A stretch of 32,780 bases of DNA from a virus. Within the stretch, counting starts at the first letter, position 1, and each line of letters begins with the position of its first letter. The stretch lies in the UHGV virus genome UHGV-0305798; one strand, written 5' to 3'. Position numbers and translations under genes: made by a program. The notes beneath the pieces were generated by a model. That model saw only the letters and a program-made list of their open reading frames with translations, searched no databases and was not told the origin of the DNA. Of this stretch, positions 4,794 through 32,780 are shown in pieces.

Positions 4794-4808
4794 TTACCAC
4801 AACGGTAA
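4794..4808. promoter_or_regulatory. palindromic site TTACC-ACAAC-GGTAA (copy A)
   Basis: Read directly; a half-degenerate second copy (TTACC-ACGGT-GGTTA) follows immediately. Lies 18 bp upstream of the terminase small subunit ATG. Confidence 0.4.
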
Positions 4809-7424: not shown

Positions 7425-7448
7425 ATGCCCGGCGAACCGGGCTGTACT
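7425..7448 (-). terminator. rho-independent terminator (minus strand) between tRNA and the 140-aa gene
   Basis: Minus-strand reading GCCCGG-ttcg-CCGGGC followed by ATTTTTTT, immediately upstream of the gene's RBS. Confidence 0.4.
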
Positions 7449-7572
7449 GGTTTACAGCATGAAGTCATCGCAATGGCGTCCTGCTGTAAAAAGGGCGGTG
7501 ATAGTTCTTCAAGGGAAACCATCACCGCCAAGCCCCTGGAACTTCTGGCATCACGGTCCTTAGGCGTGATTC

Positions 7573-7649
7573 TGGCGTGGCATGCAGGATTCGAACCTGC
7601 GACCAACCGCTTAGAAGGCGGTTGCTCTGTCCGACTGAGCTAATGCCAC
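7573..7649 (-). tRNA. tRNA-Arg (anticodon UCU)
   Basis: Minus-strand sequence GTGGCATTAGCTCAGTCGGACAGAGCAACCGCCTTCTAAGCGGTTGGTCGCAGGTTCGAATCCTGCATGCCACGCCA folds as a cloverleaf: 7-bp acceptor stem, D arm, anticodon stem ACCGC/GCGGT with loop CTTCTAA, T loop TTCGAAT, encoded CCA end. Confidence 0.85.
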
Positions 7650-7971: not shown

Positions 7972-7986
7972 TTACCTGAAAGGTAA
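7972..7986. promoter_or_regulatory. palindromic site TTACC-TGAAA-GGTAA (copy B)
   Basis: Read directly; about 90 bp upstream of the small ORF and portal operon; 17-mer TTACCTGAAAGGTAATA is identical to copy E. Confidence 0.4.
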
Positions 7987-16976: not shown

Positions 16977-19723
16977 TGCCTGTTGTTCCTACTACATCCG
17001 GACGCCAGGTGCAAAGTCGTGGTGTGCAAACCGGTGGTTTTCAGACCTTCGATGTTCCTCAAGCAGGTCAGGTGCTGGCGAATGTCGCAGATCAGTATGC
17101 GGTGGCATATGGTGAAGCTAGGCAGAAAGCGAATGTTGCTATGGCCCAGGAGGCGTTACTGCAATTTAACCAATTTGCAGATGACCAGATTAACAACCCT
17201 GAAAATGGGCTGATTTCTAAACAGGGTAAAAACGCTCTTGGTCAGAGTGACGCTGTTATGAAAAATATGCAGGAAAGGGCTCAGGCATTATTAGGCTCAA
17301 TTCCTGAAAGTGAGGAAAGGAATAAATTATCCTTTCAACTCCAGCAGTCTATGCAGTCTTATTACAATCAGGCACGTCGATATGAAGTTGGGCAGTTTCA
17401 GCAATTCCAAGATCAAACGTATTTGTCAGGAAATGCATTGGCTGTCACTCAGTCTGCGGGGCTATATAGCGATAACCAAGCATTTGTCGATTTAGCCAAG
17501 CAGCGATTTGAATCTATTGATCAATACGCTGATGCGCATGGGCTTCCTGATGAGTGGCGTGTTCAGCAGAAAACTCAGCTCAAGGAACAAATGGGGCAGC
17601 AAGCATGGATAGGAAATATCGCTCAAAAATACAACGAGTTTCTTCAGGTTAATGGAGAGCCAGGGGATCTTGATGGTGTGAGTCGTGCAATATCACATGG
17701 TAATTCATTGGATGCTCGTGGTTTACGTAATAATAACCCTGGTAATATTGAAGCGAGCAAATCTAACCCGTGGGAAGGTCAGATCGGTAGTGATGGACGT
17801 TTTGCAACGTTTGCTACCCCTGAGCATGGAATCCGCGCGTTGGGTAAAAATATGTTGTCTTACCAGCGTCAAGGCTATGACACCGTTAGCGAGATTGTTA
17901 ATCGCTATGCTCCGGCTAGTGATGGTAATAATACTGATGCTTATATTAGGGCATTGTGTAGTGAGCTTGGTGTTGGGGAGAATGATCAGCTTGATATCTC
18001 TAACCCAAAGACACTAGCTGCTTTATGTGCTGGGATTATTAAACACGAAAATGGCAGTATGCCTTATAGCACCGAACAGCTTGAAACTGGTATCTCGGCA
18101 GCCCTTGGTCTAACTAACCTTGATTCACCTAAGCGTTATACGGGCAATGCGGCATTTGACGCTATGAGCCCTCAAATGCAAATACAGGCATTGAGGCAGG
18201 CTAATGAGCTGAGAAATCAGTACCGCCAGCAGTATGCGGACCAGCTTAGCACCGTAGTTAAAGATGCATATTCAGCCCTTGATGAAGGATTGAAACCTGA
18301 GAAGTTACCTTCTGAGGACGATTTTATCCGGGCCAATGGTCCGCGCATTGGCGCTATGAAGTGGAAGGATATGCAGGCGCAGATACAATATGGAGGTGTC
18401 ATTGGTGCCGCTAAAGACCTCACTCCAGAAGGACGACAAGACATTCTTGAACGTTTACGTCCACAGGATCCAAATGCTCCTGGATTTGCAGCTAACCAGC
18501 AACGCTGGGAGAAAATGCAGGCCAAATTTAAAGAGATGGATAGGGAGTGGGAGATTCAGCAGGGAAGAAACAGGTTCGTGTCTTCAATGCAAAATAACTT
18601 CCCGCTGGACCCTAACGACAAAAACAATCAGGCAGCGGTAGACCGTTATTTCGCGCAGGATATCGCGCCTTCGTTTTCCATATCTGATCCGCAGAGCATC
18701 AATACACTGGTCACCGTCACAACTAAAAGCGGCATGATACCAACTCAGGTTAAAACAATGCTTAACAGTGGAGCAACATCAAGAGATCCTGCGCTGGTTG
18801 TCCCGATGGCAAAATTCTACGGTCAGTTATTCGATAATAATCCGGCGGCAGCGGCAACACTTGATAAAAGTACGATGGCATTTTACGGCAAGGTTTACGA
18901 TTATTCCCGCGCTGGCGTGCCGGAGGATAAGGCTGTTGATATGGCTTACAGCCAGGTGTTCCAACAGGATGACCGAATGAAACAGATGCTTTCCACTGCC
19001 ATGCGAGACAAAAAATATGTCGCGGCGAGGGCAACTGCTGCACAAAATAACGCCAGCAGTCTGACTTCCTTTGGTTCGTGGTCTCCGGATATTACCGATC
19101 CAGGAAAATCAAATGCGGCCTATCAGCGAGATTACCAGACAATTTACGATGCTAACTTTGTACAGACAGGTGGCGATGCAGAACAGGCTGAGAAAATGAC
19201 CAATGCCATGATCAGAACCACCTGGGGAGTTTCTACAGTTAATGGCAAAGCAGAGGTTATGAAGTATGCACCTGAGGCATTGTACGGAGTAAATAATGGT
19301 GCTGGTAACTGGATACAGGGGCAGTGGGAGCAGGAAAAACGCGAGCTTAAATCAAAATCCTTTGGCGGTCCTCGCAGTGATACGGACTTAATACTTGTTT
19401 CTGATGGCCTTACGGCAAGGGATAGGAGTTATGCTGTTATGGTTTTACAGCCTGACGCAAACGGAGCGATAGAACCGAGAAATTATATTGGAGAAAATGG
19501 TCTCCCTGTTCGTTTCAAGCCGGATCAGCTGACATCTCCAATGTACAGGCAAACCATTCAGTTCCAGCAACAGCGTGTTGATGAGGCTAGAGTGCGGAGA
19601 GAAGGCAATCCGCTGCCGCAGTTCAGCAATAAAGATGGATATACTCCTCCAGATCTGACCAAACCATTCGGTTATGGTTCAGCCAATTACCTTCCGAGCA
19701 ATATATACGCAGGGGGCAAATAA
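16976..19723 (+). CDS. internal core protein C-like (gp15 position), 915 aa
   Basis: Large ORF in the gp15 slot with tight overlaps to neighbours; contains a distinctive block (RGLRNNNPGNIEASKSNPWEGQ...VNRYAP) that may be a catalytic or cell-wall-interacting domain. Confidence 0.6.
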   Translation: MPVVPTTSGRQVQSRGVQTGGFQTFDVPQAGQVLANVADQYAVAYGEARQKANVAMAQEALLQFNQFADDQINNPENGLISKQGKNALGQSDAVMKNMQERAQALLGSIPESEERNKLSFQLQQSMQSYYNQARRYEVGQFQQFQDQTYLSGNALAVTQSAGLYSDNQAFVDLAKQRFESIDQYADAHGLPDEWRVQQKTQLKEQMGQQAWIGNIAQKYNEFLQVNGEPGDLDGVSRAISHGNSLDARGLRNNNPGNIEASKSNPWEGQIGSDGRFATFATPEHGIRALGKNMLSYQRQGYDTVSEIVNRYAPASDGNNTDAYIRALCSELGVGENDQLDISNPKTLAALCAGIIKHENGSMPYSTEQLETGISAALGLTNLDSPKRYTGNAAFDAMSPQMQIQALRQANELRNQYRQQYADQLSTVVKDAYSALDEGLKPEKLPSEDDFIRANGPRIGAMKWKDMQAQIQYGGVIGAAKDLTPEGRQDILERLRPQDPNAPGFAANQQRWEKMQAKFKEMDREWEIQQGRNRFVSSMQNNFPLDPNDKNNQAAVDRYFAQDIAPSFSISDPQSINTLVTVTTKSGMIPTQVKTMLNSGATSRDPALVVPMAKFYGQLFDNNPAAAATLDKSTMAFYGKVYDYSRAGVPEDKAVDMAYSQVFQQDDRMKQMLSTAMRDKKYVAARATAAQNNASSLTSFGSWSPDITDPGKSNAAYQRDYQTIYDANFVQTGGDAEQAEKMTNAMIRTTWGVSTVNGKAEVMKYAPEALYGVNNGAGNWIQGQWEQEKRELKSKSFGGPRSDTDLILVSDGLTARDRSYAVMVLQPDANGAIEPRNYIGENGLPVRFKPDQLTSPMYRQTIQFQQQRVDEARVRREGNPLPQFSNKDGYTPPDLTKPFGYGSANYLPSNIYAGGK

Positions 19724-22700
19724 TGCCGATATATGAACAGGATCCTAAAGAGTTGCTTGGCGAGGATATTCAGCAAATAGCAGCACCTGATGACAGTAAT
19801 TTCTATATGGAAACACCTTCTTTGCTTTCTGCTGTGAACCCATTTACCAGTGAGCAACGCGTTCAAAGGTCTAGACAAGCAGCATTTCGTATAGATAACA
19901 CGCTGGGTAGCTTTATTGCCAGTGCTCCTTTCAGTCAGTTTGACAGGGTTGAAGGATATAACCCATTTGATAACGATGCAGCAGATATTAAAGGCTATGA
20001 AGATTTTGCAGATTCGTTTATCAACTCCGGTTCGCATGAAGAAACAATGGCAATTAAACATCGAATCGATAAGCAAAGAACAGATAGAGAATATCTATCT
20101 GAAATGGGTGGTGCTGGTACTATTTCAAGCTTAGCAATGGGAATGATAGACCCGGTTAATGTGGCTGCAATGTTCATCCCTGTAGGGGCGGTAGCGCGTG
20201 GAGGAAGTATTGCTGAGACGGCAGGGCGTTTTGCCCTGGCGAATGCTGCTGGTGGGGGAGTATCAGAAGCCGCATTACAGGCCACTCAGGAAGCTCGCTC
20301 ACCGATGGAGAGCGTATCGAACGTTGTTGTTGATGCTCTCGTTGGTGGGATCCTTGGTGCTGGTGCACAGCTACTTGCTGGACCTAGCGCGCGCGAGGCA
20401 GTGGTTAACTCAGTAGGTAATCATTTGCGAGGTATGGATTCTCCTCAAAGCATTGGTGCAGCTCAGGTTTTCAATACCACACTCGATCAGGAACAGCTCG
20501 CTGGACTTGGACTTGCTAACAAAACGTTGAGTGTCACTCCTGCTGGCCGCTTGGCGCAATCACCATCTCTTGTCTCCCGTCAGATTAACCAGCAGCTTGC
20601 CGAAAATAACTATTTCTTCGCCAAAAATGATGAGGGGTTGGCTACGTTTACGGCAGTCGAGACTAAGATTAAGCAATACGACGCCATGCTTTATAAGCAG
20701 ATGGAAGCTACTCGTGATGCTTACCAGCAGTACAGCAAATCTGTCAGCGCCCGCGGCGTGAAGAGGATGAACTTTATTGATTTCAATGAAGCTGTTGGCA
20801 TGGCTATGCGCCGTGGTGATCAGAGTGATATTCCTGAGGTTTCACAAGCAGCCGCCAGAATCCGCCCCATTTTTGAGACCACAAAAGCCCGTATGCAGGA
20901 ATTGGGGATCCTTCCTGAGGATATCGATGTCGTGACGGCGAAGAGTTATCTTCCCCGCATTTATAAGTTCGATAAGATACTTTCCGACCGCACTGAATTC
21001 AGAGGGCGAATTGCCAACTGGATACAAGGGATTAGTGCCAAAGGTGCTGACAAAGCAGGTCAGCGAATTGAAAAGATAAATTCATTGCTAAAAACTGCAG
21101 AGGAATCAGCACCGCGCGCTGATGCTCTCGCTAGTGAAATCGCTGAAGCGGAGAAATGGTCTGGTAAAAAAATTCTACTCATGGAAGAACTGGATAAACG
21201 AAATAAGCTTATATCTCAGGAGACTGACACACAGGCGCGTCTTACAAGAATAGAAAAAGAGTTGGCCGAGACTTCATCAGAAAAACTTCAGGCAAGAATG
21301 ATGAAAGAAAGCTCTGACCTTAAAACACGCCTTGATGATATAGCGCAGGCAAAGAGTGAGCTTCCTGTCTATCAGCGCCATATGGAGTTGCTGGATAATC
21401 CACGGAAATATCGTTCTGAGCTTCGCCGACTGCAAAAACGGGCAAATTCAACCACAAGGCTGAATGCAAGCCGCGAGCGAGCACTGAAGCAGATGGAGCC
21501 TCTATCCCGAGAGGAAGCAGAGGACGCTGCTGACGAGATCGTGAATAAAATAATAGGCGCACCTTCCGGGCTTGTACCAGCCGATATTATCCCAGAGAGA
21601 CTCGTTGGTCGGGCTGGTTTCACTAAAAGCAGAACGCTGCTTATTCCTGATGAGCGTATAGAAGATTTTCTTGAATCAGATGTTAACTACATCATGGAAA
21701 GTTATCTCCGGCAGGTGGCACCAGAAATTGAGCTGACTGCGCAGTTTGGCCGTAAAGATATGGGGGAGCAAATCCGTCAGGTTAGTGAGGAATATACCCG
21801 GCTAATAAAAGAGGCTAAAACACCTAAACGACGTGCAGTTCTTGAGAAGCAACGGGAGGCTGATATTAGGGATATTACGGCTATGCGTGATCGACTGCTT
21901 GGTACTTACGGTGCACCTCAAGATCCACGCAGTTTCTTTGTTCGTGCCGGGCGAGTTGCTAGGAATATTAACTTCCTCCGTTTGCTTGGTGGAATGACTG
22001 TCTCCGCTGCAACTGATCTGATGCGACCGATGATGCAGCATGGCCTGAGAAAATCTCTCGGACCAATGGTAAGCATGCTTAAAAATATGGACTCAGTAAA
22101 AATTGCAACCAGGGATTTGCGAGAAATGGCAGTTGGGCTTGATTATGTCCTGTCTACGCGTACAAAGGCTATAGCGGATCTTACTGACCCCTATAGCCGG
22201 AGAAGCGCCGCTGAGCGAGGTCTGAACTGGATGACGCAGAAATTCGGTAACTGGACGCTGATGAATCAGTGGAACAGCGCACTTAAATCATGGTCTGGGA
22301 TGATAGTGCAGTCGAGGATACTTGACGCGGCTCGCCAAGTTTCTGCTGGTGGCACGCTCTCCAAAAGTGAAATGCGGAAGATGGCACAGGTCGGCATCAA
22401 TGAAGATGTTCTGCGCCGAATCGGGGAGCAATTCGGGAAGCACGGAGAGGATATGGACGGGCTGTTAACCGGGCATAGTCATCTGTGGGATGACCGTTTC
22501 GCTAGAGAGATTTTCCAGTCTGCAGTGCTGAAAGATGTAGACTCAGTGATTGTAACGCCTGGCGTAGGTGATACACCGCTGTTTTTTAGTAAAGAAGGCT
22601 GGAAGATGATCACGCAGTTCAAAACGTTTATCTTCGCACAGCATAACAGGGTGCTGGTATCTGGTATCCAGCAGGGCGATGCTGCATTCTATCTTGGTGC

Positions 22701-23112
22701 GCTTGGCACGATTGCGCTTGGCTCAATGGTCTATATGATGAAACAGAAGTTAAGCGGTCGCGATATCGACTACAGCTGGAATAACCTTGTGAAAGAGGGG
22801 ATCGACCGGGGCGGAATGCTTGGCTGGCTCTCTGAGCCGCTGAATACCGTTGAGAACATAAGCGGCGGTAGGTTTGGTCTTGGCGCGATGTTTGGTGCGC
22901 CTCCGGTATCAAGGTTTCAGAGTCGTAATGCTATTGGTGCTTTACTTGGTCCTACCTTTGATCTTGGCGGTGATGCCGCGACGGTTGCAAATGGTGTACT
23001 TAACGGAGAATTTGACAGCCAGCAAACCCACGCTGTCCGTAAAATGCTACCTTTTCAGAATCTGTGGGCGATATCACCATTACTAAATAAAGTTGAAGAG
23101 CAGATGAAATAG
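19723..23112 (+). CDS. internal core/ejection protein D-like (gp16 position), 1129 aa
   Basis: Largest ORF in the module, in the gp16 slot; long charged coiled-coil centre and Gly/Ala-rich hydrophobic segments. No transglycosylase motif recognised. Confidence 0.6.
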   Translation: MPIYEQDPKELLGEDIQQIAAPDDSNFYMETPSLLSAVNPFTSEQRVQRSRQAAFRIDNTLGSFIASAPFSQFDRVEGYNPFDNDAADIKGYEDFADSFINSGSHEETMAIKHRIDKQRTDREYLSEMGGAGTISSLAMGMIDPVNVAAMFIPVGAVARGGSIAETAGRFALANAAGGGVSEAALQATQEARSPMESVSNVVVDALVGGILGAGAQLLAGPSAREAVVNSVGNHLRGMDSPQSIGAAQVFNTTLDQEQLAGLGLANKTLSVTPAGRLAQSPSLVSRQINQQLAENNYFFAKNDEGLATFTAVETKIKQYDAMLYKQMEATRDAYQQYSKSVSARGVKRMNFIDFNEAVGMAMRRGDQSDIPEVSQAAARIRPIFETTKARMQELGILPEDIDVVTAKSYLPRIYKFDKILSDRTEFRGRIANWIQGISAKGADKAGQRIEKINSLLKTAEESAPRADALASEIAEAEKWSGKKILLMEELDKRNKLISQETDTQARLTRIEKELAETSSEKLQARMMKESSDLKTRLDDIAQAKSELPVYQRHMELLDNPRKYRSELRRLQKRANSTTRLNASRERALKQMEPLSREEAEDAADEIVNKIIGAPSGLVPADIIPERLVGRAGFTKSRTLLIPDERIEDFLESDVNYIMESYLRQVAPEIELTAQFGRKDMGEQIRQVSEEYTRLIKEAKTPKRRAVLEKQREADIRDITAMRDRLLGTYGAPQDPRSFFVRAGRVARNINFLRLLGGMTVSAATDLMRPMMQHGLRKSLGPMVSMLKNMDSVKIATRDLREMAVGLDYVLSTRTKAIADLTDPYSRRSAAERGLNWMTQKFGNWTLMNQWNSALKSWSGMIVQSRILDAARQVSAGGTLSKSEMRKMAQVGINEDVLRRIGEQFGKHGEDMDGLLTGHSHLWDDRFAREIFQSAVLKDVDSVIVTPGVGDTPLFFSKEGWKMITQFKTFIFAQHNRVLVSGIQQGDAAFYLGALGTIALGSMVYMMKQKLSGRDIDYSWNNLVKEGIDRGGMLGWLSEPLNTVENISGGRFGLGAMFGAPPVSRFQSRNAIGALLGPTFDLGGDAATVANGVLNGEFDSQQTHAVRKMLPFQNLWAISPLLNKVEEQMK

Positions 23113-23113
23113 G

Positions 23114-23965
23114 ATGAAAAAAATAAATTTGTTTTTTGGCATAGTGCTTTCAATAGTCTCTGTAAATCCTACAGCTGCCAGTTCATTGCAATGCAATAAG
23201 GATAACTTTGATGCATGCAAAACGTGCGAACAATTATCAAAGGCTATCGACTTAAAAGAACCTAATCGTGGCGATTACTATAGAGGGGCTTTATGGAATG
23301 GGCTTTACGCCTCTTATGTAATTAATTGCCCTGTGGTTGCAGAGAAGTTACTGAGCCATGGTGCTATACCATCATATGGCGGATATATGGGGTCTATGGG
23401 GGCGGTTCTGACAGGAAAATGGCCTCATAACAATGAATCAATAAATCTTTCATGGGCAGATTTGCTTATAAAACATGGATTTGATGTTAATAGGCATACG
23501 GGGAATTATAAATCAGCTACTGAAGTATGGGCTATAGATAAAAAACAGATTGAATATAAGTCAGTTTTTGACAAGTTAATTCAATCCAGCGAAGTAAAAC
23601 CACTCGATCCTTCAAGAAATTTAGAATGGTGTGCGTCTGAAGGGTATCGCTCAGTTGTCGTTTATTCCCTTAACTCATGTATAGAAAATGCTATAAAACG
23701 TTTGGATGACGGTGTTTCTTCAGCGTCTGATATTTCATCAGCAGCCGTAAATTCCTGTACTAGCGATGTAGAAAATTTCAATAAGCATTTGGCATGCAAA
23801 GCAGCTGTTAAAGAAAACTCTGATAAAGAGAGAAGCAACGTTTACCAGTTATTAACCAGTGATAGTCAAATGAATAAAAATGTTATTGATATGCTGAAGG
23901 AAAGAAATATTGAAACGGTTCTTGAATTTAGAGCTGAAAATCGATCAGCGAAAACTGCACAGTGA
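23114..23965 (+). CDS. AT-rich secreted protein (283 aa), accessory gene
   Basis: Sec-type signal peptide (MKKINLFFGIVLSIVSVNPTAAS), several Cys, and visibly lower GC than flanking genes (by eye); followed by a strong terminator. Confidence 0.6.
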   Translation: MKKINLFFGIVLSIVSVNPTAASSLQCNKDNFDACKTCEQLSKAIDLKEPNRGDYYRGALWNGLYASYVINCPVVAEKLLSHGAIPSYGGYMGSMGAVLTGKWPHNNESINLSWADLLIKHGFDVNRHTGNYKSATEVWAIDKKQIEYKSVFDKLIQSSEVKPLDPSRNLEWCASEGYRSVVVYSLNSCIENAIKRLDDGVSSASDISSAAVNSCTSDVENFNKHLACKAAVKENSDKERSNVYQLLTSDSQMNKNVIDMLKERNIETVLEFRAENRSAKTAQ

Positions 23966-23971
23966 TCAAAC

Positions 23972-23997
23972 AGGCCGCTTTCGCGGCCTTGTTTTTA
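23972..23997 (+). terminator. rho-independent terminator after the secreted-protein gene
   Basis: GGCCGC-tttc-GCGGCC hairpin followed by TGTTTTT. Confidence 0.55.
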
Positions 23998-24156
23998 ACG
24001 AATGCCACCGCCGCCCGGACGGGAATCCGCAGAACGCCCACCGCAGCGGGAGCCGTCAGCGGCAGTATCGCTGTCGTGCTGACAACGACCGGCAAAGGCC
24101 TGAGTTGAAGCTACCAGAGACAACAAAACGAACAGTGCAGCAAATGCTTTTTTCAT
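23995..24156 (-). CDS. small secreted peptide (53 aa), putative
   Basis: Minus-strand ATG at 24156 gives MKKAFAALFVLLSLVASTQAFA (signal peptide) then a Gly/Arg/Asp-rich mature region with two Cys. Weak RBS; the longer ORF-track start looks spurious. Confidence 0.35.
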   Translation of the reverse strand: MKKAFAALFVLLSLVASTQAFAGRCQHDSDTAADGSRCGGRSADSRPGGGGIR

Positions 24157-24228
24157 TGTGAAATTTCCATCTATAAGCCACCTCAATGTGGCGTCAATGA
24201 GTGTAGCACTGACTTTTGTTTCGTCCAC

Positions 24229-24249
24229 AAAAAAGCCCGCGCTGCGGGC
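24229..24249 (-). terminator. rho-independent terminator (minus strand) after the 210-aa gene
   Basis: Minus-strand GCCCGC-agc-GCGGGC followed by TTTTTT, 5 bp past the stop codon. Confidence 0.5.
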
Positions 24250-24254
24250 TTCTA

Positions 24255-24887
24255 TTAATGCAGTTTATCTTTGCTTATAACCAGTAGTCTGTGGGTATGC
24301 ACATCTTTATCACTGCCCCAACAGAAATCAGCCCACTGGCTATAGAAATCATCCCATGATGTCATGAAGCTAAGAGGTCTATCTTCTTCAGAGCCATCTG
24401 AAACGTATACATTATATCCTGGGGTGTTTATAGCCCAAGAAATCATTCTTTCCCAGAATCTTCTCCCATCGATTGTTTGTTGCTCATCAGATACAACGAT
24501 CGCATATTGCTCTAGGAAGAACTGAAAAAAAATCTGAGGCAAACCATGAACAGCACGGTCATGAATAACATTAGGCGTACGCCATACCATGATCTGCGTA
24601 CATGTTCTTTTGGCTTCGACGATATCTTCCCGAAAGATTAACTTAACCGCATACACCGTTTCTGGAGTATCGCTGGTAGTAATCATTCTGTAATGATCGC
24701 CATTACAAGATTTTACAAGGCGATAACCATAAGGTGTTGTGAATCCCGGAAGAACGAAATCAACCACACCTTTCGCTAAGTAGCTTTCGGTGTGACTAGT
24801 GTTCTTCTCAGACATGTTCAGTTTTCTATCGAAATCTGCTTCTGGGATAATGTATGGCATCGCTTTTCTTGTTGTATTTGTTCTCAT
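24255..24887 (-). CDS. hypothetical protein (210 aa), reverse-strand accessory gene
   Basis: ATG at 24887 preceded by GGGAGG at 5 nt; own terminator downstream and palindromic site upstream; AT-rich by eye; no family recognised. Confidence 0.6.
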   Translation of the reverse strand: MRTNTTRKAMPYIIPEADFDRKLNMSEKNTSHTESYLAKGVVDFVLPGFTTPYGYRLVKSCNGDHYRMITTSDTPETVYAVKLIFREDIVEAKRTCTQIMVWRTPNVIHDRAVHGLPQIFFQFFLEQYAIVVSDEQQTIDGRRFWERMISWAINTPGYNVYVSDGSEEDRPLSFMTSWDDFYSQWADFCWGSDKDVHTHRLLVISKDKLH

Positions 24888-24946: not shown

Positions 24947-24961
24947 TTACCCTTGAGGTAA
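24947..24961. promoter_or_regulatory. palindromic site TTACC-CTTGA-GGTAA (copy C)
   Basis: Read directly; about 60 bp upstream of the 210-aa gene start. Confidence 0.4.
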
Positions 24962-24997: not shown

Positions 24998-25025
24998 GAA
25001 TTATTTAAAGGCACATCCCTGTGCC
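24998..25025 (-). terminator. possible terminator (minus strand) after antirepressor gene
   Basis: Minus-strand GGCAC-agggat-GTGCC followed by TTTAAATAATT; moderate. Confidence 0.35.
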
Positions 25026-25033
25026 GCCGCCCG

Positions 25034-25726
25034 TCAGAAGAACCCTGCCTTGTCGTTGATGTACTCCGCGTGGGTCTGGATATCACGCAGGCATTTGCTC
25101 ACACCAACGATGTAGCAGAACATGGTGGTCAGCTCCGCCGCCGCGCCCGATACGTCGTGCCCGTCTTCCTGTAACTGGTTCAGCAGATTCATCAGCAGTG
25201 AGTTCTCCGTCAGGCCGAGAACACCAGACGGAGAATGAATCAGGCTGCGGTAGCCGGGCTTCAGCGGGGCGCTGTAGGTTTTGTTCTCTATCTTCATTGC
25301 CTGCATCACTGCTGATGCTGTGGCGTTTGCAACCTGGTCGGCAACCATCTTTATGCGTTCTTCCTGCGGGAGCGAGTTTTTAATGTAACTTCCGGTGCGG
25401 CGGATCTGAGGAAGAACCTCACCTGTAACCCATTCAAGAAATCTGAATGCTCTCGTTCCCTCAGTCATTGCCTCTTTGCAACGCAGAATAAGGATGTAGA
25501 GACCTGATTCTGAAACGATGGATAGTTCTTGTATTCCACCAGGGGTCTGTATTGAATACAGCCCCTTTTTGTTCCAGCCTTTTTTATCAAGTTTTCTCGC
25601 TTGTGTAACATCAATATTCAAAGCATTGCACACATCTTTGGTGACAAACCAAGGTTCTCCGTCAATCATGAACATACGGATCTGGCAGGATGACTCAAAG
25701 GAAAAGATGGAAGGTTTGGTATTCAT
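25034..25726 (-). CDS. Bro-N domain antirepressor-like protein
   Basis: N-terminus (MNTKPSIFSFESSCQIRMFMIDGEPWFVTKDVCNALNI) matches the BRO-N signature of phage antirepressors; start at 25726 after AAAGGTGA (the ORF-track start 25771 adds 15 aa). C-terminal 70 aa are paralogous to the small gene at 26040..26297. Confidence 0.75.
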   Translation of the reverse strand: MNTKPSIFSFESSCQIRMFMIDGEPWFVTKDVCNALNIDVTQARKLDKKGWNKKGLYSIQTPGGIQELSIVSESGLYILILRCKEAMTEGTRAFRFLEWVTGEVLPQIRRTGSYIKNSLPQEERIKMVADQVANATASAVMQAMKIENKTYSAPLKPGYRSLIHSPSGVLGLTENSLLMNLLNQLQEDGHDVSGAAAELTTMFCYIVGVSKCLRDIQTHAEYINDKAGFF

Positions 25727-25880
25727 GGCGATCACCTTTGTAGTTAGGTTAATCACCACCGCTGAGACCAATCAGATGGTGGTGAACTGTGCAGAGTTGG
25801 TCTTACCGGCTACAAAGGAACCCGGCGCACCTTTCGGTGCCCCCACACAGCCCACCATAGAATAGGTGCGCTTTACACAT

Positions 25881-25906
25881 AAAAAAACCGCTTATGCGGC
25901 ATATGT
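25881..25906 (-). terminator. possible terminator (minus strand) downstream of the small LexA-box gene
   Basis: Minus-strand GCCGC-ataa-GCGGU followed by seven U; short stem, so moderate. Confidence 0.35.
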
Positions 25907-25993
25907 GCCTCTGTAGTAATCCGGGAGACCAATCCCGGCACTGGATTTTGCCAGTGCCCGATTACTATGGCACAAGAGGAGTGCGATGTAAAT

Positions 25994-26008
25994 TTACCGC
26001 AAAGGTAA
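25994..26008. promoter_or_regulatory. palindromic site TTACC-GCAAA-GGTAA (copy D)
   Basis: Read directly; extended palindrome ATTTACC-GCAAA-GGTAAAT; lies between the antirepressor and the small paralogous gene. Confidence 0.4.
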
Positions 26009-26039
26009 ATATAAGCACTCCATTTGGTAATTGCAAACC

Positions 26040-26297
26040 TTATCTGGTTTGTTTTCGTAATTGTTCGGCACAATAGTCGAGATGTGTTTGCAGATCCTGC
26101 ATAGACATCTGTGAGCTGGTGACGTAGTTAATCAGTGCAGTCAGTTCGGCAAGTGGGCCATCGACATTAAATCCATCCTTATCGAGATCCCGGAGTAATT
26201 TCATCAAGTGCGATCCCTCCACCAGTGACCTGACGCCTCCCGGCGTGTGAATCCTTTCGGTAAATCCGTCTTCCAGTGGATAGTGATACTGCTGCAT
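26040..26297 (-). CDS. small antirepressor-like protein (Tum-like, about 85 aa)
   Basis: About 40% identical by eye to the C-terminal domain of the adjacent antirepressor (shared IH-P-GV, AELT, DxQTHxxY motifs). ATG at 26297 has GGAG at 9 nt; alternative ATG at 26312. A LexA box lies immediately upstream. Confidence 0.6.
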   Translation of the reverse strand: MQQYHYPLEDGFTERIHTPGGVRSLVEGSHLMKLLRDLDKDGFNVDGPLAELTALINYVTSSQMSMQDLQTHLDYCAEQLRKQTR

Positions 26298-26317
26298 CTT
26301 AATCTTCTCCATGCAAT

Positions 26318-26337
26318 AACTGTATATTTATACAGTA
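26318..26337. promoter_or_regulatory. LexA (SOS) box
   Basis: AACTGTATATTTATACAGTA matches the CTGT-N8-ACAG consensus (TACTGTATATATATACAGTA) at 18 of 20 positions; sits just upstream of the small antirepressor-like gene. Confidence 0.7.
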
Positions 26338-26374
26338 TCAAATAATTTGTTTGCTATCCAGCACGTTTTGAAAA

Positions 26375-26389
26375 TTACCTGAAAGGTAA
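26375..26389. promoter_or_regulatory. palindromic site TTACC-TGAAA-GGTAA (copy E)
   Basis: Read directly; about 105 bp upstream of the tailspike ATG and about 40 bp beyond the LexA box; 17-mer identical to copy B. Confidence 0.4.
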
Positions 26390-26493: not shown

Positions 26494-28956
26494 ATGACGG
26501 TCTCAACCGAAGTTGACCACAACGAATACACAGGTAACGGCGTTACGACATCATTTCCGTATACCTTCCGTATTTTCAAAAAATCCGACCTGGTTGTTCA
26601 GGTGTCTGACCTTAACGGTAACGTTACAAAACTAGTGCTGGATGCTGGTTATACGGTAACAGGGGCGGGAACTTATAGTGGCGGTGCAGTGGTTCTTCCG
26701 TCGCCGCTTGCTGCTGGCTGGCGAATCACGATAGAGCGTGTGCTTGATGTGGTGCAGGAGACTGATCTTCGCAATCAGGGAAAATTTTTCCCCGAAGTTC
26801 ATGAGGATGCATTTGACTACCTGACGATGCTGATCCAGCGATGTTTTGGGTGGTTCAGACGTGCATTGATGAAACCATCTTTGCTTGCAAAATATTACGA
26901 TGCAAAGCAAAACAGAATATCTAACCTTGCAGATCCATCATTTGAGCAGGACGCTGTAAATAATCGCTCAATGCGCAATTATGTCGATGCTGCAATCGCC
27001 GGGGTTGTTGGTGGTTTTGGTTGGTTTATTCAGTATGGTTCTGGAGCGGTATACAGAACACTCCAAGATAAGATGCGTGATGGTGTCAGCATTAAGGATT
27101 TTGGAGCTCAAAATGGAATCTTAAATGATAACAAGGAGTCTTTTACAAAATCATCACATTCGTTTAGCAGTGTTTTTGTTCCGGAAGGGGTATTCAATAC
27201 ATCTTTAGTTTCTCTTTCACGTTGTGGCTTGTACGGAACAGGTGGGGGAACGATAAAACAGTATGACAGAGATGGTAATCATCTGGTTTTTAACATGCCC
27301 GATGGTGGCATGCTTAGTACGCTAACAATTATGGGAAATAAATCAGATGATAGTGTGCAGGGACACCAGGTGTCATTTTCAGGTGGCCATGATGTATCGG
27401 TTAAAAATATCAGATTTACAAATACGCGAGGACCAGGATTTAGCTTGATCGCTTATCCGAATAATGGTATTCCGTCAGGTTACATTGTTAGAGATATAAG
27501 AGGAGAGTATTTAGGGTTCGCAAATAATAAAAAAGCAGGTTGTGTGCTTTTTGATTCATCGCAAAACACGCTAATTGATGGTGTGATAGCCAGAAATTAT
27601 CCTCAGTTTGGTGCAGTGGAACTTAAAACAGCAGCAAAATATAACATTGTCAGCAATGTTATTGGTGAAGAGTGTCAGCACGTTGTTTACAATGGAACTG
27701 AGACGGAAACTGCCCCAACGAATAATATCATTAGCAGTGTAATGGCTAACAACCCAAAATACGCCGCAGTAGTTGTTGGCAAGGGGACTGGTAACCTGAT
27801 TTCGGATGTGCTGGTTGATTACTCTGAATCGGACGCAACGCAGGCGCACGGCGTCACCGTTCAGGGAAATAATAATATTGCCAGTAATATTCTAATGACT
27901 GGGTGTGACGGGAAAAATGAATCAGGAGATCTGCAGAAATCTACAACCATTCGTTTCTTAAATGCTGCAGGCAGTAATTATGCGTCAATATTCCCCATGT
28001 ATAGTTCTTCTGGCGTGGTTACCTTCGAGGAAGGGTGTATCAGGAACTTTGTTGAAATTAAACATCCGGGTGATAGAAATAATATTCTGAGTTCTGCATC
28101 AGCGGTGACTGGTATTTCCAGTATAGACGGCACTACAAATAGCAATGTTGTTCACGTCCCTGCGCTTGGTCAGTACATTGGGACTATGTCAGGGCGTTTT
28201 GAATGGTGGGTTAAATATTTTAACCTTGCTAACCAGACGCTTGTTTCTGCAGATAAATTCAGAATGCTTGCTGAAGGAGATGTATCTCTGGCTGTGGGAG
28301 GCGGTATAAGGTCGCAATTGAAATTATTCAATAGTGATAATACTAAAGGCACTATGTCGCTAATAAATGGAAATATTCGAATATCTACTGGAAATTCAGA
28401 ATATATACAGTTTTCTGATTCAGCCATGACACCATCGACAACGAATACTTATTCTCTTGGGTTGGCTGGTCGTGCATGGTCGGGGGGATTTACCCAGTCA
28501 GCGTTTACGGTGCTGTCCGATGCGCGTTTCAAGACTGCTCCAGAGGTTATTGATGAGAAAATACTGGACGCATGGGAAAGAGTGGAATGGGTTTCATACC
28601 AGTACCTTGACAGGATCGAAGTGAAAGGTAAAGACGGAGCAAGATGGCACTTTGGTGCAGTTGCGCAGCATGTTATCAGTGTATTTCAGAATGAAGGCAT
28701 AGATGTGTCACGACTGGCATTTATCTGTTATGACAAGTGGAATGAGACCCCGGCAGAATACAGGGATGTGACGGAAGAAGAGCATTCTGCAGGAGTTTAC
28801 CCACTTATACAGACAAAGGTTCTGGTACGCGAAGCCGTCGAGGCTGGTGAATGTTACGGTATCCGTTATGAAGAGGCTCTGATTCTGGAATCTGCGATGA
28901 TGAGACGCAGGGTTAAAAAGCTGGAAGAGCAAGTTTTGCAATTAACAGGGAATTGA
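26494..28956 (+). CDS. tailspike/tail fiber with T7 gp17-like N-terminal domain and C-terminal intramolecular chaperone domain
   Basis: N-terminal 110 aa follow the T7 gp17 particle-binding pattern. Central region is Gly/Asn/Thr-rich with repetitive beta-strand-like segments, consistent with a beta-helix. C-terminal block (SDARFKTAPEVIDEKILDAWERVEWVSYQY...WHFGAVAQHV...EALILESAMMRR) matches the self-cleaving chaperone domain (peptidase S74-like) of endosialidase-type tailspikes. Confidence 0.85.
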   Translation: MTVSTEVDHNEYTGNGVTTSFPYTFRIFKKSDLVVQVSDLNGNVTKLVLDAGYTVTGAGTYSGGAVVLPSPLAAGWRITIERVLDVVQETDLRNQGKFFPEVHEDAFDYLTMLIQRCFGWFRRALMKPSLLAKYYDAKQNRISNLADPSFEQDAVNNRSMRNYVDAAIAGVVGGFGWFIQYGSGAVYRTLQDKMRDGVSIKDFGAQNGILNDNKESFTKSSHSFSSVFVPEGVFNTSLVSLSRCGLYGTGGGTIKQYDRDGNHLVFNMPDGGMLSTLTIMGNKSDDSVQGHQVSFSGGHDVSVKNIRFTNTRGPGFSLIAYPNNGIPSGYIVRDIRGEYLGFANNKKAGCVLFDSSQNTLIDGVIARNYPQFGAVELKTAAKYNIVSNVIGEECQHVVYNGTETETAPTNNIISSVMANNPKYAAVVVGKGTGNLISDVLVDYSESDATQAHGVTVQGNNNIASNILMTGCDGKNESGDLQKSTTIRFLNAAGSNYASIFPMYSSSGVVTFEEGCIRNFVEIKHPGDRNNILSSASAVTGISSIDGTTNSNVVHVPALGQYIGTMSGRFEWWVKYFNLANQTLVSADKFRMLAEGDVSLAVGGGIRSQLKLFNSDNTKGTMSLINGNIRISTGNSEYIQFSDSAMTPSTTNTYSLGLAGRAWSGGFTQSAFTVLSDARFKTAPEVIDEKILDAWERVEWVSYQYLDRIEVKGKDGARWHFGAVAQHVISVFQNEGIDVSRLAFICYDKWNETPAEYRDVTEEEHSAGVYPLIQTKVLVREAVEAGECYGIRYEEALILESAMMRRRVKKLEEQVLQLTGN

Positions 28957-29028
28957 ACCGTAAATGGTGTGTTGTTGCGCGGTATACTTTTCCTGAAGCA
29001 GGGTGTTTGCAAATAAACGGGTTTCGTT

Positions 29029-30883: not shown

Positions 30884-30944
30884 AATTGAGTTTTGGAAAA
30901 ATGTTATCACTCAATTGGTTATGGTATCCGTAAATAATTGAGTG
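30884..30944. repeat. short repeated 8-9 bp elements (AATTGAGT) in the prophage-host junction region; candidate att arm sites
   Basis: AATTGAGT at 30884-30891, its reverse complement CACTCAATT at 30908-30916 and AATTGAGTG at 30936-30944, between the last phage gene and the host terminator. Confidence 0.3.
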
Positions 30945-30975
30945 GGAATGATTTGACCCTGCACTATGAATGAAC

Positions 30976-31043: not shown

Positions 31044-31583
31044 TTAGTTAAACCAGCTATCTGATTTATTCTCTTCTGCTTTACCCACGCTTTTCATCAG
31101 ATCGCGACCGCCTTCAGTCATATTTCTGTTTGCGTCAGCTTCAGATTGCACCACATCGGTTTGCGCAGCTTTGTGCTTCAGTTCCTGATCGATAAATTCG
31201 TTTTCGCGCTTAACGCGGGCTTCTTCTTTCGCCAGCGCCAGTTTTTGTTTCTGAATCTCTAAGCTACGTAGCTCATCTTCATAACTTTGATCGCGTTTTT
31301 TGTCCGCAGTGGCTTCGGCGTCCAGTTTATCCTGACGAGCTTTCTTATTCGCTGCTGCCGTTGCCGCTCTTTTATTAGCCGCGGCCTGGGCGTTTGCGCG
31401 ACGTTGCTTCTCTTGCTGGATTTCCCTGTTGCGCTCCGCGACCCATTCGTCATGCTGCCTTTGCTCTTCATTTTTACCTTGCTGTTCCGCTTCTGCGACA
31501 GCCGAGAGTTGATCCTGCAATGATGAGGCGATAGCCGGATAGCTTAAGGAGGCTAAGATGGCGCAAAGAAAAACTTTCTTCAT
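31044..31583 (-). CDS. yfgI: periplasmic charged coiled-coil protein, YfgI-like (179 aa)
   Basis: Signal peptide (MKKVFLCAILASLSYPAIA) then Lys/Glu/Ala/Gln-rich helical protein. Length and the neighbouring 172-aa lipoprotein and 63-aa genes match my recollection of the E. coli yfgG-yfgH-yfgI locus; symbol is recall-based. Confidence 0.55.
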   Translation of the reverse strand: MKKVFLCAILASLSYPAIASSLQDQLSAVAEAEQQGKNEEQRQHDEWVAERNREIQQEKQRRANAQAAANKRAATAAANKKARQDKLDAEATADKKRDQSYEDELRSLEIQKQKLALAKEEARVKRENEFIDQELKHKAAQTDVVQSEADANRNMTEGGRDLMKSVGKAEENKSDSWFN

Positions 31584-31598
31584 GACTCCTCCTGATTA

Positions 31599-32117
31599 TT
31601 AGCTCTTTTCAGGACATTTGGTATTTGGCTGAATACGCGTTTCGTTATACGTCGTGGTAATAACAACGGCTAAACCTGTCGTAAACTGGCACTCTTTACC
31701 CACTTGGGTGGAGGTATACACTTTGGTGCCTTCCTTATATGTTAAAGAAACACCTTCCACTAAGGTTTTATCATTCACCATAGAACCCGCTGCCGCGCCT
31801 ACAGCTCCGCCGCCAACTGCACCTGCCGTCGTTCCGGAATTGCTACCAGACCCGACGTTGTGGCCGATAACACCGCCAGCGACAGCGCCAATAAGCGCGC
31901 CGAAGGCTTGTGCGTTCCGTTTATTTTGGGCGTTGTCTACGGCAACTTTTGCGGGAAGAATGGAAATAATATTAACGGTTTTAGTTTCTTGTTTGGTATT
32001 CAGTTGATCGGTTTGATAAACATCGGCGGCATGATCATCAGCATTTGACTGGCATCCTGCCAGAGTGAATGACGCTAACATTGCCACAGGCAGAAGACAT
32101 TTTTTAAATTTCATCAC
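31599..32117 (-). CDS. yfgH: glycine-zipper outer-membrane lipoprotein, YfgH-like (SlyB/Pcp family; 172 aa)
   Basis: Lipoprotein signal with lipobox (FTLAGC), DVY motif, Gly-zipper (GALIGAVAGGVIGHNVGSG...GAVGGGAVGAAAGS) and C-terminal beta-rich region, as in SlyB-family lipoproteins; length matches recalled E. coli YfgH. Confidence 0.6.
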   Translation of the reverse strand: MMKFKKCLLPVAMLASFTLAGCQSNADDHAADVYQTDQLNTKQETKTVNIISILPAKVAVDNAQNKRNAQAFGALIGAVAGGVIGHNVGSGSNSGTTAGAVGGGAVGAAAGSMVNDKTLVEGVSLTYKEGTKVYTSTQVGKECQFTTGLAVVITTTYNETRIQPNTKCPEKS

Positions 32118-32418
32118 TATTCCTTGTTATACACATTACGAAAAATAAGACATTTAAGATCATCAAAAGAGGAAAGTAAATGTATTGCGTATAAAGGAAT
32201 AGATTAAATTTATTAAAATTCATGTGGGGAATAATTTATAAAAATACATCATCACAACATATGTATTAATGATGTATTTATTTCGCAGCCGAACTGCAGT
32301 CAGAACAAAGACGTAAAATTTAAGATGAAAGAATATCTGCCGCTTTGATAATCTCAAAGAGCAAAAGCATCCGACAGCGAGGTGCCGTTATGTTCTGTGA
32401 GAGTGGAGAAGGTAACCG

Positions 32419-32610
32419 CTAACGTTGTACCGGTGATTCGACGGAGAGTGTGGATTGCTGAGCTTCTTTTTTGCTCTGATGGTGCTGCCAGGCACCGACG
32501 GACGAGTAGATAAAACGGCCAAAGAAGAAGATAAAGCTGATGAGCAGTACGATACGGGTCATGCGACTGTTAAATCGGTGTCGTTTTCGCATACTGGTTG
32601 CCTGACTCAC
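32419..32610 (-). CDS. yfgG: small membrane protein, YfgG-like (63 aa)
   Basis: 63-aa ORF with basic N-terminus and one hydrophobic helix (IVLLISFIFFFGRFIY); position and size agree with recalled E. coli yfgG. Confidence 0.45.
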   Translation of the reverse strand: MSQATSMRKRHRFNSRMTRIVLLISFIFFFGRFIYSSVGAWQHHQSKKEAQQSTLSVESPVQR

Positions 32611-32780
32611 AAAAGGTTCCTTGAAGTATGTCCCACGCCGTGGACGGTACTTACATTAAGGCACAACAGGACAAAATGGTCAATTCTTCGTTATGTAAAG
32701 AAGCGTCAGTGAATACATATTTTAATGTTATGGAAGTTAATTTAATTATTTACAATGATGATGTAATAATGATGAGTTAA

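Follow-up and report, generated by a model that had tools for sequence, protein, structure and literature searches.

A probable secondary immunity region in a Uetakevirus prophage of E. coli, with a putatively LexA-controlled small antirepressor and a candidate RNA-gated second antirepressor

The small antirepressor Ant of the Salmonella phage SPC32H was reportedly described by Kim and Ryu in J Virol in 2013 as a protein repressed by LexA, and structures of Ant (PDB 5D50 and 5D4Z) are said to have been published by Kim et al. in PNAS in 2016. The entry 5D50 is SPC32H Ant (86 aa) crystallised with its repressor. In phage P22, a podovirus, the immI region (mnt-arc-ant, with the sar RNA) interrupts the late genes between gene 16 and the tailspike gene and works with an antisense RNA. 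A C4-family RNA controls the immI regions of phages P1 and P7 (c4-icd-ant1/ant2), and the annotation of p95/tum in phage 186 places a LexA box at the promoter. The account of a LexA-repressed antirepressor in SPC32H is cited in a passage of PMC7380047; passages of two other articles present Ant as tetrameric and able to take the Rep tetramer apart (PMC9638917) and as a ligand of the C-terminal tetramerisation domain of Rep (PMC9986798). LexA-controlled antirepressors were described in the Gifsy prophages (Lemire et al. 2011, PMC3121763), and the isrK-orf45-anrP-isrJ locus of Gifsy-1 was analysed by Hershko-Shalev et al. 2016 (PMC4825925).

The window analysed here, the whole stretch of 32,780 nucleotides, is a Uetakevirus (epsilon15/phiV10-like) prophage integrated beside E. 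coli yfgI. None of the complete E. coli genomes searched contained the intact window (best coverage 85% at 97% identity), and the host flank of the prophage is ubiquitous among such genomes. The antirepressor block is flanked by the genes for a 1129-aa internal virion protein (19723-23112) and for the tailspike (26494-28956). A preliminary description of this DNA had located a small reverse-strand gene with a near-consensus LexA box, next to a Bro-N gene, between the internal core genes and the tailspike, and all of these elements are indeed found there. The position before the tailspike is, however, not unusual, since it is conserved across the phage genus. The locus is most probably a secondary immunity (antirepressor) region composed of two separable modules, namely an SPC32H-type SOS switch and an RNA-gated second antirepressor. 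Both modules are of already known kinds, and nothing in them is conceptually new. The features of the locus are listed in Table 1; an NCBIfam search with the four proteins of the block gave zero matches.

Table 1. Features of the antirepressor block, given in positions of the window.
Feature	Coordinates	Strand	Remarks
Possible weak terminator after the Bro-N gene	25000..25025	-	Hairpin GGCACA-GGGA-TGTGCC followed by TTTAAATAAT, read from the sequence
Second antirepressor gene, 230 aa from ATG	25034..25726	-	Bro-N residues 16-106; Ant-like C-terminal domain, residues ~149-225 (nt 25282-25052)
Leader of the Bro-N gene with putative C4 targets	25735..25771	-	b2 TTGGTCT 25771-25765; a2 CTACAAAGG 25743-25735, overlapping the Shine-Dalgarno sequence
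C4-like antisense RNA	25775..25862	-	a' loop CCTTTGTAG 25818-25810; b' AGACCAA 25803-25797
IsrK-like sRNA (a1b1 element)	25881..25957	-	b1 25932-25926; a1 25916-25908; intrinsic terminator
Promoter-like site TTTACA-17-(TG)CATAGT	25964..25992	-	Promoter scan, consensus match only; predicted start near 25957
Palindrome TTACC-N5-GGTAA	25994..26008		Abuts the -35 of the putative IsrK promoter
Small antirepressor gene ant, 85 aa	26040..26297	-	SPC32H Ant orthologue; Shine-Dalgarno GGAGAAG at 26310-26304
LexA (SOS) box	26318..26337		AACTGTATATTTATACAGTA; core CTGT-N8-ACAG at 26320-26335
Putative ant promoter	26332..26360	-	-35 TGGATA (26360-26355), 17-nt spacer, -10 TACTGT (26337-26332, within the LexA box)
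Palindrome TTACC-N5-GGTAA	26375..26389		ant/tailspike intergenic region; probable Rep operator by inference

The small protein was found by tblastn to be 88% identical over its full length to the ant product of KC911856 (SPC32H). Its residues 2-84 aligned with residues 3-85 of PDB 5d50_E, "Anti-repressor protein", in a phmmer search (E=4.1e-47), and it matched phrog_450. The start codon coincides with the start of the annotated, crystallised SPC32H Ant. The two phages, which belong to the same genus, also share the orientation of ant and its place in the genome, with the gene for the internal virion protein on one side and that for the tailspike on the other. A sub-threshold Pfam match of the small protein to DUF724 was dismissed as chance.

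The LexA box upstream of ant has two mismatches to the 20-nt consensus. It was the sole site in the window within three mismatches, and none of 100 shuffles yielded a match. Two occurrences of its core CTGT-N8-ACAG were counted in the window, where 0.42 would be expected; the one outside the box, at 7442, was rejected as chance, as its spacer is GC-rich and the other consensus bases are absent. Both the box and the Shine-Dalgarno sequence of ant align with their SPC32H counterparts. The half-sites are invariant in five natural phages in which the spacer varies, and the complete genome of the relative EC.W1-9 contains a single LexA box, located at ant. The invariant blocks GCTGGATAG and TACTGT in an alignment of six phages point to a putative ant promoter, which the LexA box would overlap; in a simple promoter scan this promoter scored below threshold, its hexamers being weak. 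SPC32N differs from SPC32H by a change of ACAG to AAAG inside the box, and Kim and Ryu are said to have described SPC32N in 2013 as a phage with constitutive Ant synthesis, which the change in the box fits.

The proposal of the preliminary description that SOS derepression of an antirepressor, and not repressor cleavage, induces this prophage is thus supported by the identity of Ant, its position, the aligned box, and SPC32N, and it amounts to an already known mechanism. In the lysogen, host LexA would occupy the box over the ant promoter. DNA damage would remove LexA and allow the 85-aa Ant to be made. By orthology with SPC32H, Ant would then bind the presumably non-cleavable HTH repressor Rep and strip its tetramer from the operators, leading to induction. 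The preliminary description had also called the small protein Tum-like, and this holds for the regulatory logic: as in 186 and the Gifsy prophages, LexA would repress a small antirepressor of a non-cleavable repressor, and the box lies at the promoter of the small gene as it does at p95/tum. Descent from the Tum/DinI-type or Gifsy-type antirepressors, in place of SPC32H Ant, nevertheless has hardly any probability. BLASTP against 186 Tum gave E=0.06 over a short stretch, the Pfam domain DinI (PF06183) was found in Tum and not in the window protein, and the full-length match goes to the structure of SPC32H Ant, so homology with Tum was rejected. Since the LexA box falls in a 196-bp divergent intergenic region, it might instead chiefly control the tailspike and lysis transcription unit, which is transcribed away from ant. 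We consider this very unlikely, because only 20 nt separate the box from the start codon of ant, against about 157 nt from the tailspike ATG, and because the other conserved palindrome of this region is the one nearer to the tailspike side. The SPC32N change in the aligned box, reportedly published as constitutive for Ant, argues in the same direction, that is, for control of ant by LexA.

The repressor gene itself lies outside the window, as indicated by the inventory of ORFs and domains and by the gene order of the relatives, which places rep beyond the left end. In every E. coli relative, the Rep homologue has a length of about 194 aa and only HTH domains according to Pfam, which found the peptidase S24 domain absent. 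These homologues include the Rep of a prophage at the same attachment site, which is also a 194-aa, HTH-only protein, and the collinear HTH-only Rep of the relatives is a further point of likeness to SPC32H. Since the identity between the Rep of these relatives and that of SPC32H is no higher than 42%, the contact between Ant and Rep is an extrapolation.

Judging from its distribution, the palindrome TTACC-N5-GGTAA is probably the operator of Rep. The window contains five perfect copies and two with one mismatch, against 0.58 expected when up to one mismatch is allowed. In EC.W1-9 there are 11 copies, all of them intergenic by the annotated CDS coordinates and three of them flanking rep, and the early region of SPC32H has seven. 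The copy next to the putative IsrK promoter has half-sites conserved in four phages, in which the 5-nt spacer differs. P1 immI has a repressor operator at its promoter, the C1 operator Op51, which would be the parallel to this palindrome.

Two RNA genes, overlooked in the preliminary description, lie between ant and the Bro-N gene on the same strand. The IsrK-like sRNA reached 74.7 bits with the Rfam family RF01394, whose gathering score is 50. With RF03163 (c4-a1b1) it obtained 39.9 bits, which is under the gathering score of 46.7. The C4-like RNA reached 78.6 bits against RF01695 (gathering score 45) and covered model positions 1-87 of 87. The terminator of IsrK was called by the terminator scan as a stem at 25900-25887 plus a T-run. 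The same pair of RNAs is also present in phiV10, Tyrion, ZX5, and a Klebsiella phage.

Read from the sequence, the loops of C4 are complementary both to IsrK and to the leader of the Bro-N gene, whose Shine-Dalgarno sequence is part of the complementary region, and the sets a'/a2 and b'/b1/b2 show compensatory differences in comparison with phiV10. Each of the 75 distinct variants had a complement of b' in IsrK and another in the leader, in eight specificity types, and most of them had the complement of a' in a1 and a2 (with a2 overlapping the Shine-Dalgarno sequence). The sites thus show three-way covariation. Non-cognate pairings gave matches of 5 nt only, against 7-9 nt for the cognate ones. 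The long transcript folded with z=-5.9 and with IsrK paired to C4, and this predicted pairing agrees with the inactive "structure A" of Gifsy-1 (PMC4825925). The a1 element had initially been placed in the loop of IsrK hairpin 1, GCAAAATC, a candidate that was rejected as invariant and devoid of covariation. It was reassigned to CTACAGAGG, between hairpin 2 and the terminator, because the long-transcript fold placed it there, and this element does covary.

In the scheme suggested by these elements, a separate promoter would start the IsrK-like sRNA, which carries b1 and a1 and would end at the intrinsic terminator. Transcripts that read through would run into the C4-like RNA, presumably processed from them, and then into the Bro-N antirepressor gene. 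The a' and b' loops of C4 would pair with a2 and b2 of the leader, mask the Shine-Dalgarno sequence by way of a2, and should thereby keep the Bro-N protein from being translated. With its decoy copies of the C4 targets, IsrK could relieve the block. The short ORF that follows IsrK has 25 codons, begins at 25879, ends inside C4, and is uncoupled from the Bro-N start, in contrast to icd of P1 and orf45 of Gifsy-1.

This second module has its counterparts in P1/P7 immI and in Gifsy-1. With immI it shares a C4-family RNA with a' and b' loops, a1/b1 upstream and a2/b2 downstream, a C4 target that overlaps the ribosome-binding site ahead of an antirepressor gene, and covarying specificity types. It differs in that icd of P1 is coupled to ant, whereas the module has no coupled ORF of this kind and the Shine-Dalgarno sequence covered by its a2 belongs directly to the antirepressor gene; in addition, a1b1 is here a discrete terminated sRNA (IsrK), the Bro-N protein carries a domain like SPC32H Ant, and the phage is a podovirus. 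The Gifsy-1 locus has in common with it the IsrK-family sRNA with its terminator, the read-through, the C4-like region, there named STnc1160, and an antirepressor-like gene. Unlike Gifsy-1, the window has at the position of orf45 only the 25-codon uncoupled ORF, an Rfam search found no isrJ match in it, and a putatively LexA-controlled small Ant stands immediately upstream; the output of Gifsy-1 is the AntQ antiterminator operon. In SPC32H, a Salmonella phage, whereas the host of the window prophage is E. coli, IsrK, C4, and the Bro-N gene are absent downstream of ant and a gene for a small membrane protein is found there. P22 immI resembles the locus as an antirepressor region of a podovirus just before the tailspike with an antisense RNA involved, but P22 ant is not known to be LexA-controlled. 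No homologue of Mnt or Arc was detected among the ORFs examined, and in Pfam the Bro-N protein scored 17.7 bits against P22_AR_N (cut-off 30.7) and had zero matches to P22_AR_C.

The Bro-N assignment of the preliminary description was borne out by Pfam (PF02498, E=1.8e-13; score 51.4 bits, cut-off 25.6). The protein matches several PHROG families of "anti-repressor Ant", including phrog_130, and its residues 147-228 match phrog_450, the family of the small Ant. Its C-terminal domain shares 42% identity with the small Ant and matches 5d50_E with E=9e-14; this homology had escaped the preliminary description. As the protein ends in an Ant fold, it probably acts on the same repressor family. It is 81% identical to ORF4 of ZX5, and overexpression of the ZX5 Bro-N protein lowered the number of lysogens about 1000-fold and repressor mRNA by 75% (PMC9782041). 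In phiV10 the Bro-N gene is truncated, and the second module is therefore dispensable in at least one viable phage. Beyond the Bro-N gene, the terminator scan made no call on the hairpin that we read there as a possible weak terminator.

The preliminary description had treated the small gene and the Bro-N gene as one paired module. Their adjacency stands, but it is improbable that the LexA unit simply extends over the Bro-N gene, which appears to have its own IsrK/C4 RNA control and promoter-like site. An arrangement in which ant, IsrK, C4, and the Bro-N gene form a single operon transcribed from the ant promoter, so that the Bro-N protein is SOS-induced directly and the RNAs only fine-tune it, is compatible with their common strand, with the 82 nt that separate the ant stop codon from IsrK, and with a spacer in which the terminator scan predicted no intrinsic terminator and the hairpin is modest (z=-2.2) and followed by no clear U-run. 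We hold it to be unlikely. The -10 hexamer of the promoter-like site, which is of the extended -10 type, ends exactly 7 nt ahead of the first position of the IsrK model, IsrK of Gifsy-1 has its own promoter (PMC4825925), and the IsrK terminator would halt most of the read-through. Moreover, about 18 related loci have an insertion of roughly 1 kb that separates ant from IsrK, among them EC.W1-9, where the inserted genes are on the opposite strand, and 50 IsrK-C4 loci have neither a small ant nor a LexA box. It should be noted that, as no terminator is predicted between ant and IsrK, LexA-controlled transcripts may enter the second module and blur the division into two.

With regard to the target of the Bro-N protein, action against the prophage's own repressor family is opposed by a possible but less favoured reading, in which it serves as an anti-immunity weapon against related resident prophages or has an unrelated DNA-binding role. 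The truncated copy in phiV10 is annotated as "anti-immunity protein", the a/b specificity types diversify as in the heteroimmunity of P1/P7, and IsrK-C4 cassettes precede many proteins of the KilA-N superfamily (Bro-N, ORF6N, Rha). Against it speak the homology of the C-terminal domain to the Rep-binding Ant and the finding that overexpression of the ZX5 orthologue reduced the lysogeny and the repressor mRNA of ZX5 itself. The two modules might form a coupled two-stage switch, which we put forward only tentatively: LexA cleavage would release Ant; Ant would displace Rep from its operators, among them the palindrome next to the IsrK promoter; the IsrK decoy would then rise against C4, and the second antirepressor with an Ant fold would be translated. 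Such a switch would provide a feed-forward commitment step or an anti-immunity weapon against related prophages, and the covarying a/b types would represent immI-like immunity groups among the epsilon15-like phages. In the literature we found no description of a system in which duplicated Ant domains are governed by the coupling of SOS control with a repressor operator and anti-antisense control.

On the present evidence, the E. coli prophage would join the phages whose induction depends on antirepression instead of cleavage of the repressor, as already established in its Salmonella relative. In E. coli Uetakevirus records the 85-aa gene carries the label "hypothetical", and the ZX5 paper (PMC9782041) makes no mention of LexA, so the assignment to Ant is a gain for annotation. 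The same applies to the IsrK and C4 RNA genes, which are unannotated or overlaid by spurious ORFs. Meanwhile, the covarying C4 specificity types constitute a ready data set on the diversification of secondary immunity in Uetakevirus-type phages.

The window holds a single near-consensus LexA box, which differs from the 20-nt consensus at two non-core positions. No other site in the window had three or fewer mismatches, and 100 shuffles gave 0 matches. The small ant open reading frame follows the box directly on the reverse strand, and its start has a good Shine-Dalgarno sequence (GGAGAAG, 26310-26304) and matches the start of the annotated, crystallised SPC32H protein. As the adjacent reverse-strand gene matched Pfam Bro-N (E=1.8e-13), the pairing of a LexA box and small gene with a Bro-N antirepressor was confirmed as given in the preliminary description. 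The tblastn search of phage genomes with the small protein returned 35 records, including the Salmonella phages SPC32H and SPC32N, whose homologue is 88% identical and annotated 'ant: anti-repressor protein'. The PDB sequence search gave one strong match, 5d50_E ('Anti-repressor protein', E=4e-47), over the whole length. The SPC32H ant gene lies in the slot noted for the window module, flanked by the genes for the large internal virion protein and the tailspike and transcribed away from the latter, and this location is conserved across the genus. The late-region position is parallel to that of P22 immI.

Features of the window, with coordinates and sequence elements
Feature	Position	Strand	Details
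HNH gene	160-624		end of early region
Palindrome TTACC-N5-GGTAA, perfect	4794-4808, 7972-7986, 24947-24961, 25994-26008, 26375-26389
Palindrome, one mismatch	4812, 26607
tRNA-Arg (anticodon TCT)	7573-7649	reverse	between terminase and portal genes
Bro-N gene	25726..25034	reverse	230 aa
a2	25743-25735		CUACAAAGG; complemented by a'
b2	25771-25765		UUGGUCU; complemented by b'
b'	25803-25797		AGACCAA, single-stranded; also complements b1
a'	25818-25810		CCUUUGUAG, C4 loop; also pairs with a1
C4 antisense RNA (RF01695)	25862..25775	reverse	78.6 bits (gathering score 45)
a1	25916-25908		CUACAGAGG; between IsrK hairpin 2 and IsrK terminator
b1	25932-25926		loop of IsrK hairpin 2
IsrK (RF01394)	25957..25881	reverse	74.7 bits (gathering score 50)
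Small ant	26297..26040	reverse	85 aa
LexA box	26318-26337		AACTGTATATTTATACAGTA
Attachment core	30937-30953		ATTGAGTGGGAATGATT, single copy
Host genes	31044-32780		yfgI (DUF5384), yfgH (glycine zipper), yfgG; beyond attachment core

In SPC32H, ant is reportedly repressed by LexA, Ant is said to inactivate the repressor Rep, and the SOS response reportedly leaves Rep uncleaved; in SPC32N, a point mutation in the LexA box is said to make Ant synthesis constitutive. We aligned the window's box with those of SPC32H, SPC32N and three other phages. Relative to SPC32H, SPC32N carried ACAG>AAAG in a box aligning column for column with window positions 26320-26335. The CTGT and ACAG half-sites were unchanged across all five natural phages while the 8-bp spacer varied, as expected for a LexA operator under selection. 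In its complete genome, EC.W1-9 has exactly one LexA box, the counterpart of that at the window's ant. Since GCTGGATAG and TACTGT are the unchanged blocks of the upstream alignment, they suggest an ant promoter with the -35 element TGGATA, a 17-nt spacer and the -10 element TACTGT inside the LexA box; this putative promoter was not called by a simple promoter scan. A second CTGT-N8-ACAG match (CTGTACTGGTTTACAG, 7442-7457), which has a GC-rich spacer and an adjacent tRNA gene, was attributed to chance.

The proposed resemblance to Tum of coliphage 186 held for the regulatory logic only: BLASTP against 186 Tum gave nothing significant, and the DinI domain of Tum is absent from the window protein. 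The SPC32H Ant/Rep system is cited alongside Tum and the Gifsy antirepressors in PMC7380047. According to two further papers, Ant is tetrameric and breaks the tetramer of Rep (PMC9638917), and the Ant interaction is mediated by the C-terminal tetramerisation domain of Rep (PMC9986798). An antirepressor under LexA control, sited between internal virion genes and tailspike, is already known: it is the system published for SPC32H, here in a relative from E. coli.

The window belongs to a Uetakevirus prophage (epsilon15/phiV10 group) integrated in an E. coli chromosome. The region studied is 91-98% identical in DNA to phiV10, TL-2011b, ZX5, EC.W1-9 and related phages. The published attachment core (PMC9782041) marks the prophage end, and the host yfgI-yfgH-yfgG region to its right was found in all 5426 of the 5426 complete E. 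coli genomes searched. The window opens with the last part of the early region, and the genes for packaging, head, internal virion proteins, tailspike and lysis follow in that order up to the prophage end; the integrase and repressor end lies past the window's left edge. An accessory block (23114-24887) separates the internal virion gene from the Bro-N gene. It encodes a 283-aa protein (phrog_6118) whose N-terminus resembles a signal peptide, a 210-aa protein (phrog_1349) whose gene has a Rep-like palindrome upstream, and, on the reverse strand, a 77-aa ORF; initiation at an in-frame ATG further downstream in this ORF would likewise yield a protein that begins like a signal peptide. Pfam and NCBIfam gave 0 matches for these three proteins.

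No Rep homologue was found among the window's ORFs, and the gene order of relatives puts rep beyond the left end. Every E. coli relative encodes a collinear Rep homologue of ~194 aa that is 42% identical to SPC32H Rep, and Pfam detected HTH domains only in these proteins, with no peptidase S24 domain. In E. coli strain 4/0, a prophage that occupies the window's attachment site has a Rep 99% identical to that of EC.W1-9. For the window's own prophage, a repressor of this kind is supported through these relatives. The palindrome TTACC-N5-GGTAA is probably the Rep operator, judging from its distribution. The window contains five perfect and two one-mismatch copies (7 versus 0.58 expected at ≤1 mismatch), located upstream of transcription units. 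EC.W1-9 has 11 copies, all 11 intergenic by annotated CDS coordinates and three flanking rep; the SPC32H early region has seven, five of them around rep. If the palindrome is the Rep operator, the regulon would be dispersed like that of P1 C1, spanning late and accessory promoters. The copy at 25994-26008 abuts the -35 element of a putative IsrK promoter; were Rep to bind there, it would also keep the IsrK-C4-Bro-N promoter closed. Such control would resemble that of P1, in which C1 controls immI at Op51.

The Rfam scan placed two reverse-strand RNA genes, IsrK and C4, neither of which features in the preliminary description, between small ant and the Bro-N gene, with a c4-a1b1 match below threshold overlapping IsrK. 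Position 1 of the IsrK model match lies 7 nt beyond the end of an extended -10 promoter-like site (TTTACA-17-TGcCATAGT, 25992-25964), and the IsrK end is formed by an intrinsic terminator (stem 25900-25887, followed by a T-run), the only good one in the region. The C4 sites a' and b' each have complements in IsrK and in the Bro-N leader, and a2 takes in the Bro-N gene's Shine-Dalgarno sequence. The 256-nt read-through RNA was predicted to fold very stably (z=-5.9), with b1 and a1 of IsrK paired to b' and a' of C4. This pairing is the counterpart of the translationally inactive 'structure A' of the Gifsy-1 isrK-orf45-anrP transcript (PMC4825925). The 'ash family protein' ORF of ZX5 (2655-2768) and the 'similar to SF0880' feature of phiV10 overlie RNA assigned by Rfam to C4/IsrK and are likely mis-annotations.

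From the window to phiV10, b1, b' and b2 changed together (TTGGTCT/AGACCAA to TTGGCGT/ACGCCAA), as did a', a1 and a2, with a one-base deletion on each side. Scanning IMG/VR with a 19-nt C4 stem sequence gave >120 loci, among them 75 distinct IsrK-C4-leader variants. The b' complement was exact in both IsrK and the leader in 75 of 75, with eight specificity types. The same set had about fifteen types of a' site whose complement recurred at a1 and a2, and a2 coincided with the Shine-Dalgarno sequence of the gene that follows. Cognate sites matched over 7-9 nt versus only 5 nt in non-cognate combinations. Such covariation is the hallmark of P1/P7 immI. In that system, as described by Citron and Schuster in 1990 and later by the Schuster laboratory, C4 RNA blocks a ribosome-binding site ahead of the antirepressor gene, and heteroimmunity is set by changes in specificity. 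The RNA-gated Bro-N module is a member of the known P1 immI/Gifsy-1 IsrK class, from which it differs in having no coupled leader ORF and in carrying a2 on the antirepressor's own Shine-Dalgarno sequence. The cassette is widespread and precedes varied KilA-N-superfamily regulators (Bro-N, ORF6N, Rha and Bro-N+P22_AR_C).

Residues 147-228 of the Bro-N protein matched phrog_450, the family of small Ant (E=3e-37), and the 5D50 Ant chain (E=9e-14), with 42% identity to small Ant. The phage thus has the Ant fold twice, free-standing under LexA control and behind Bro-N under RNA control. ORF4 of ZX5 is an orthologue with 81% identity, and its C-terminal 110 residues are identical; its overexpression lowered lysogens ~1000-fold and repressor mRNA by 75% (PMC9782041). 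The same paper reports induction of ZX5 by mitomycin C and mentions neither LexA nor small ant, a gene annotated as hypothetical in ZX5. The phiV10 Bro-N gene (L002, 3571-4250) is truncated before the Ant-like C-terminal domain. At one IMG/VR locus (L096), a Rha-domain protein lies downstream of an IsrK-C4 cassette, and by eye its end resembles the Ant-like C-terminal domain (LLTYLKKDGHNVDEAE...THHQY), a likeness suggesting that the Ant fold may be a shuffled effector module. As far as we found, the tandem of the two modules, the Ant-fold duplication and a likely operator for Rep at the IsrK promoter are undescribed and represent modest additions.

The evidence on the coupling of the two modules points in both directions. 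SPC32H and epsilon15 have only small ant, 50 IsrK-C4 loci lack both small ant and the LexA box, and about 18 relatives (EC.W1-9 and IMG/VR loci) carry an insert of ~1 kb between ant and IsrK, with genes running on the opposite strand in EC.W1-9, all of which speaks for separability. Meanwhile, the terminator scan predicted none between ant and IsrK, and the palindrome at the putative IsrK promoter also counts towards possible coupling in the window's phage.

In the lysogen, LexA would repress ant, while Rep and C4 RNA would keep the Bro-N antirepressor silent. Upon DNA damage, the removal of LexA would allow Ant to be made and Rep to be disassembled, inducing the prophage. IsrK decoy RNA would rise relative to C4, whether by release of the IsrK promoter or by transcription continuing from the ant promoter, and would allow translation of the Bro-N antirepressor, which could act as a reinforcement step or have an anti-immunity function. 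The LexA-Ant-Rep half of this model is supported by close orthology to an experimentally established system and the C4/IsrK gate by family membership and strong covariation; the coupling of the two halves is speculative. The ant/IsrK junction seems to be a favoured site for the insertion of accessory genes; the insert of EC.W1-9 (28067-28982) contains two genes, both on the strand opposite to that of ant and IsrK.
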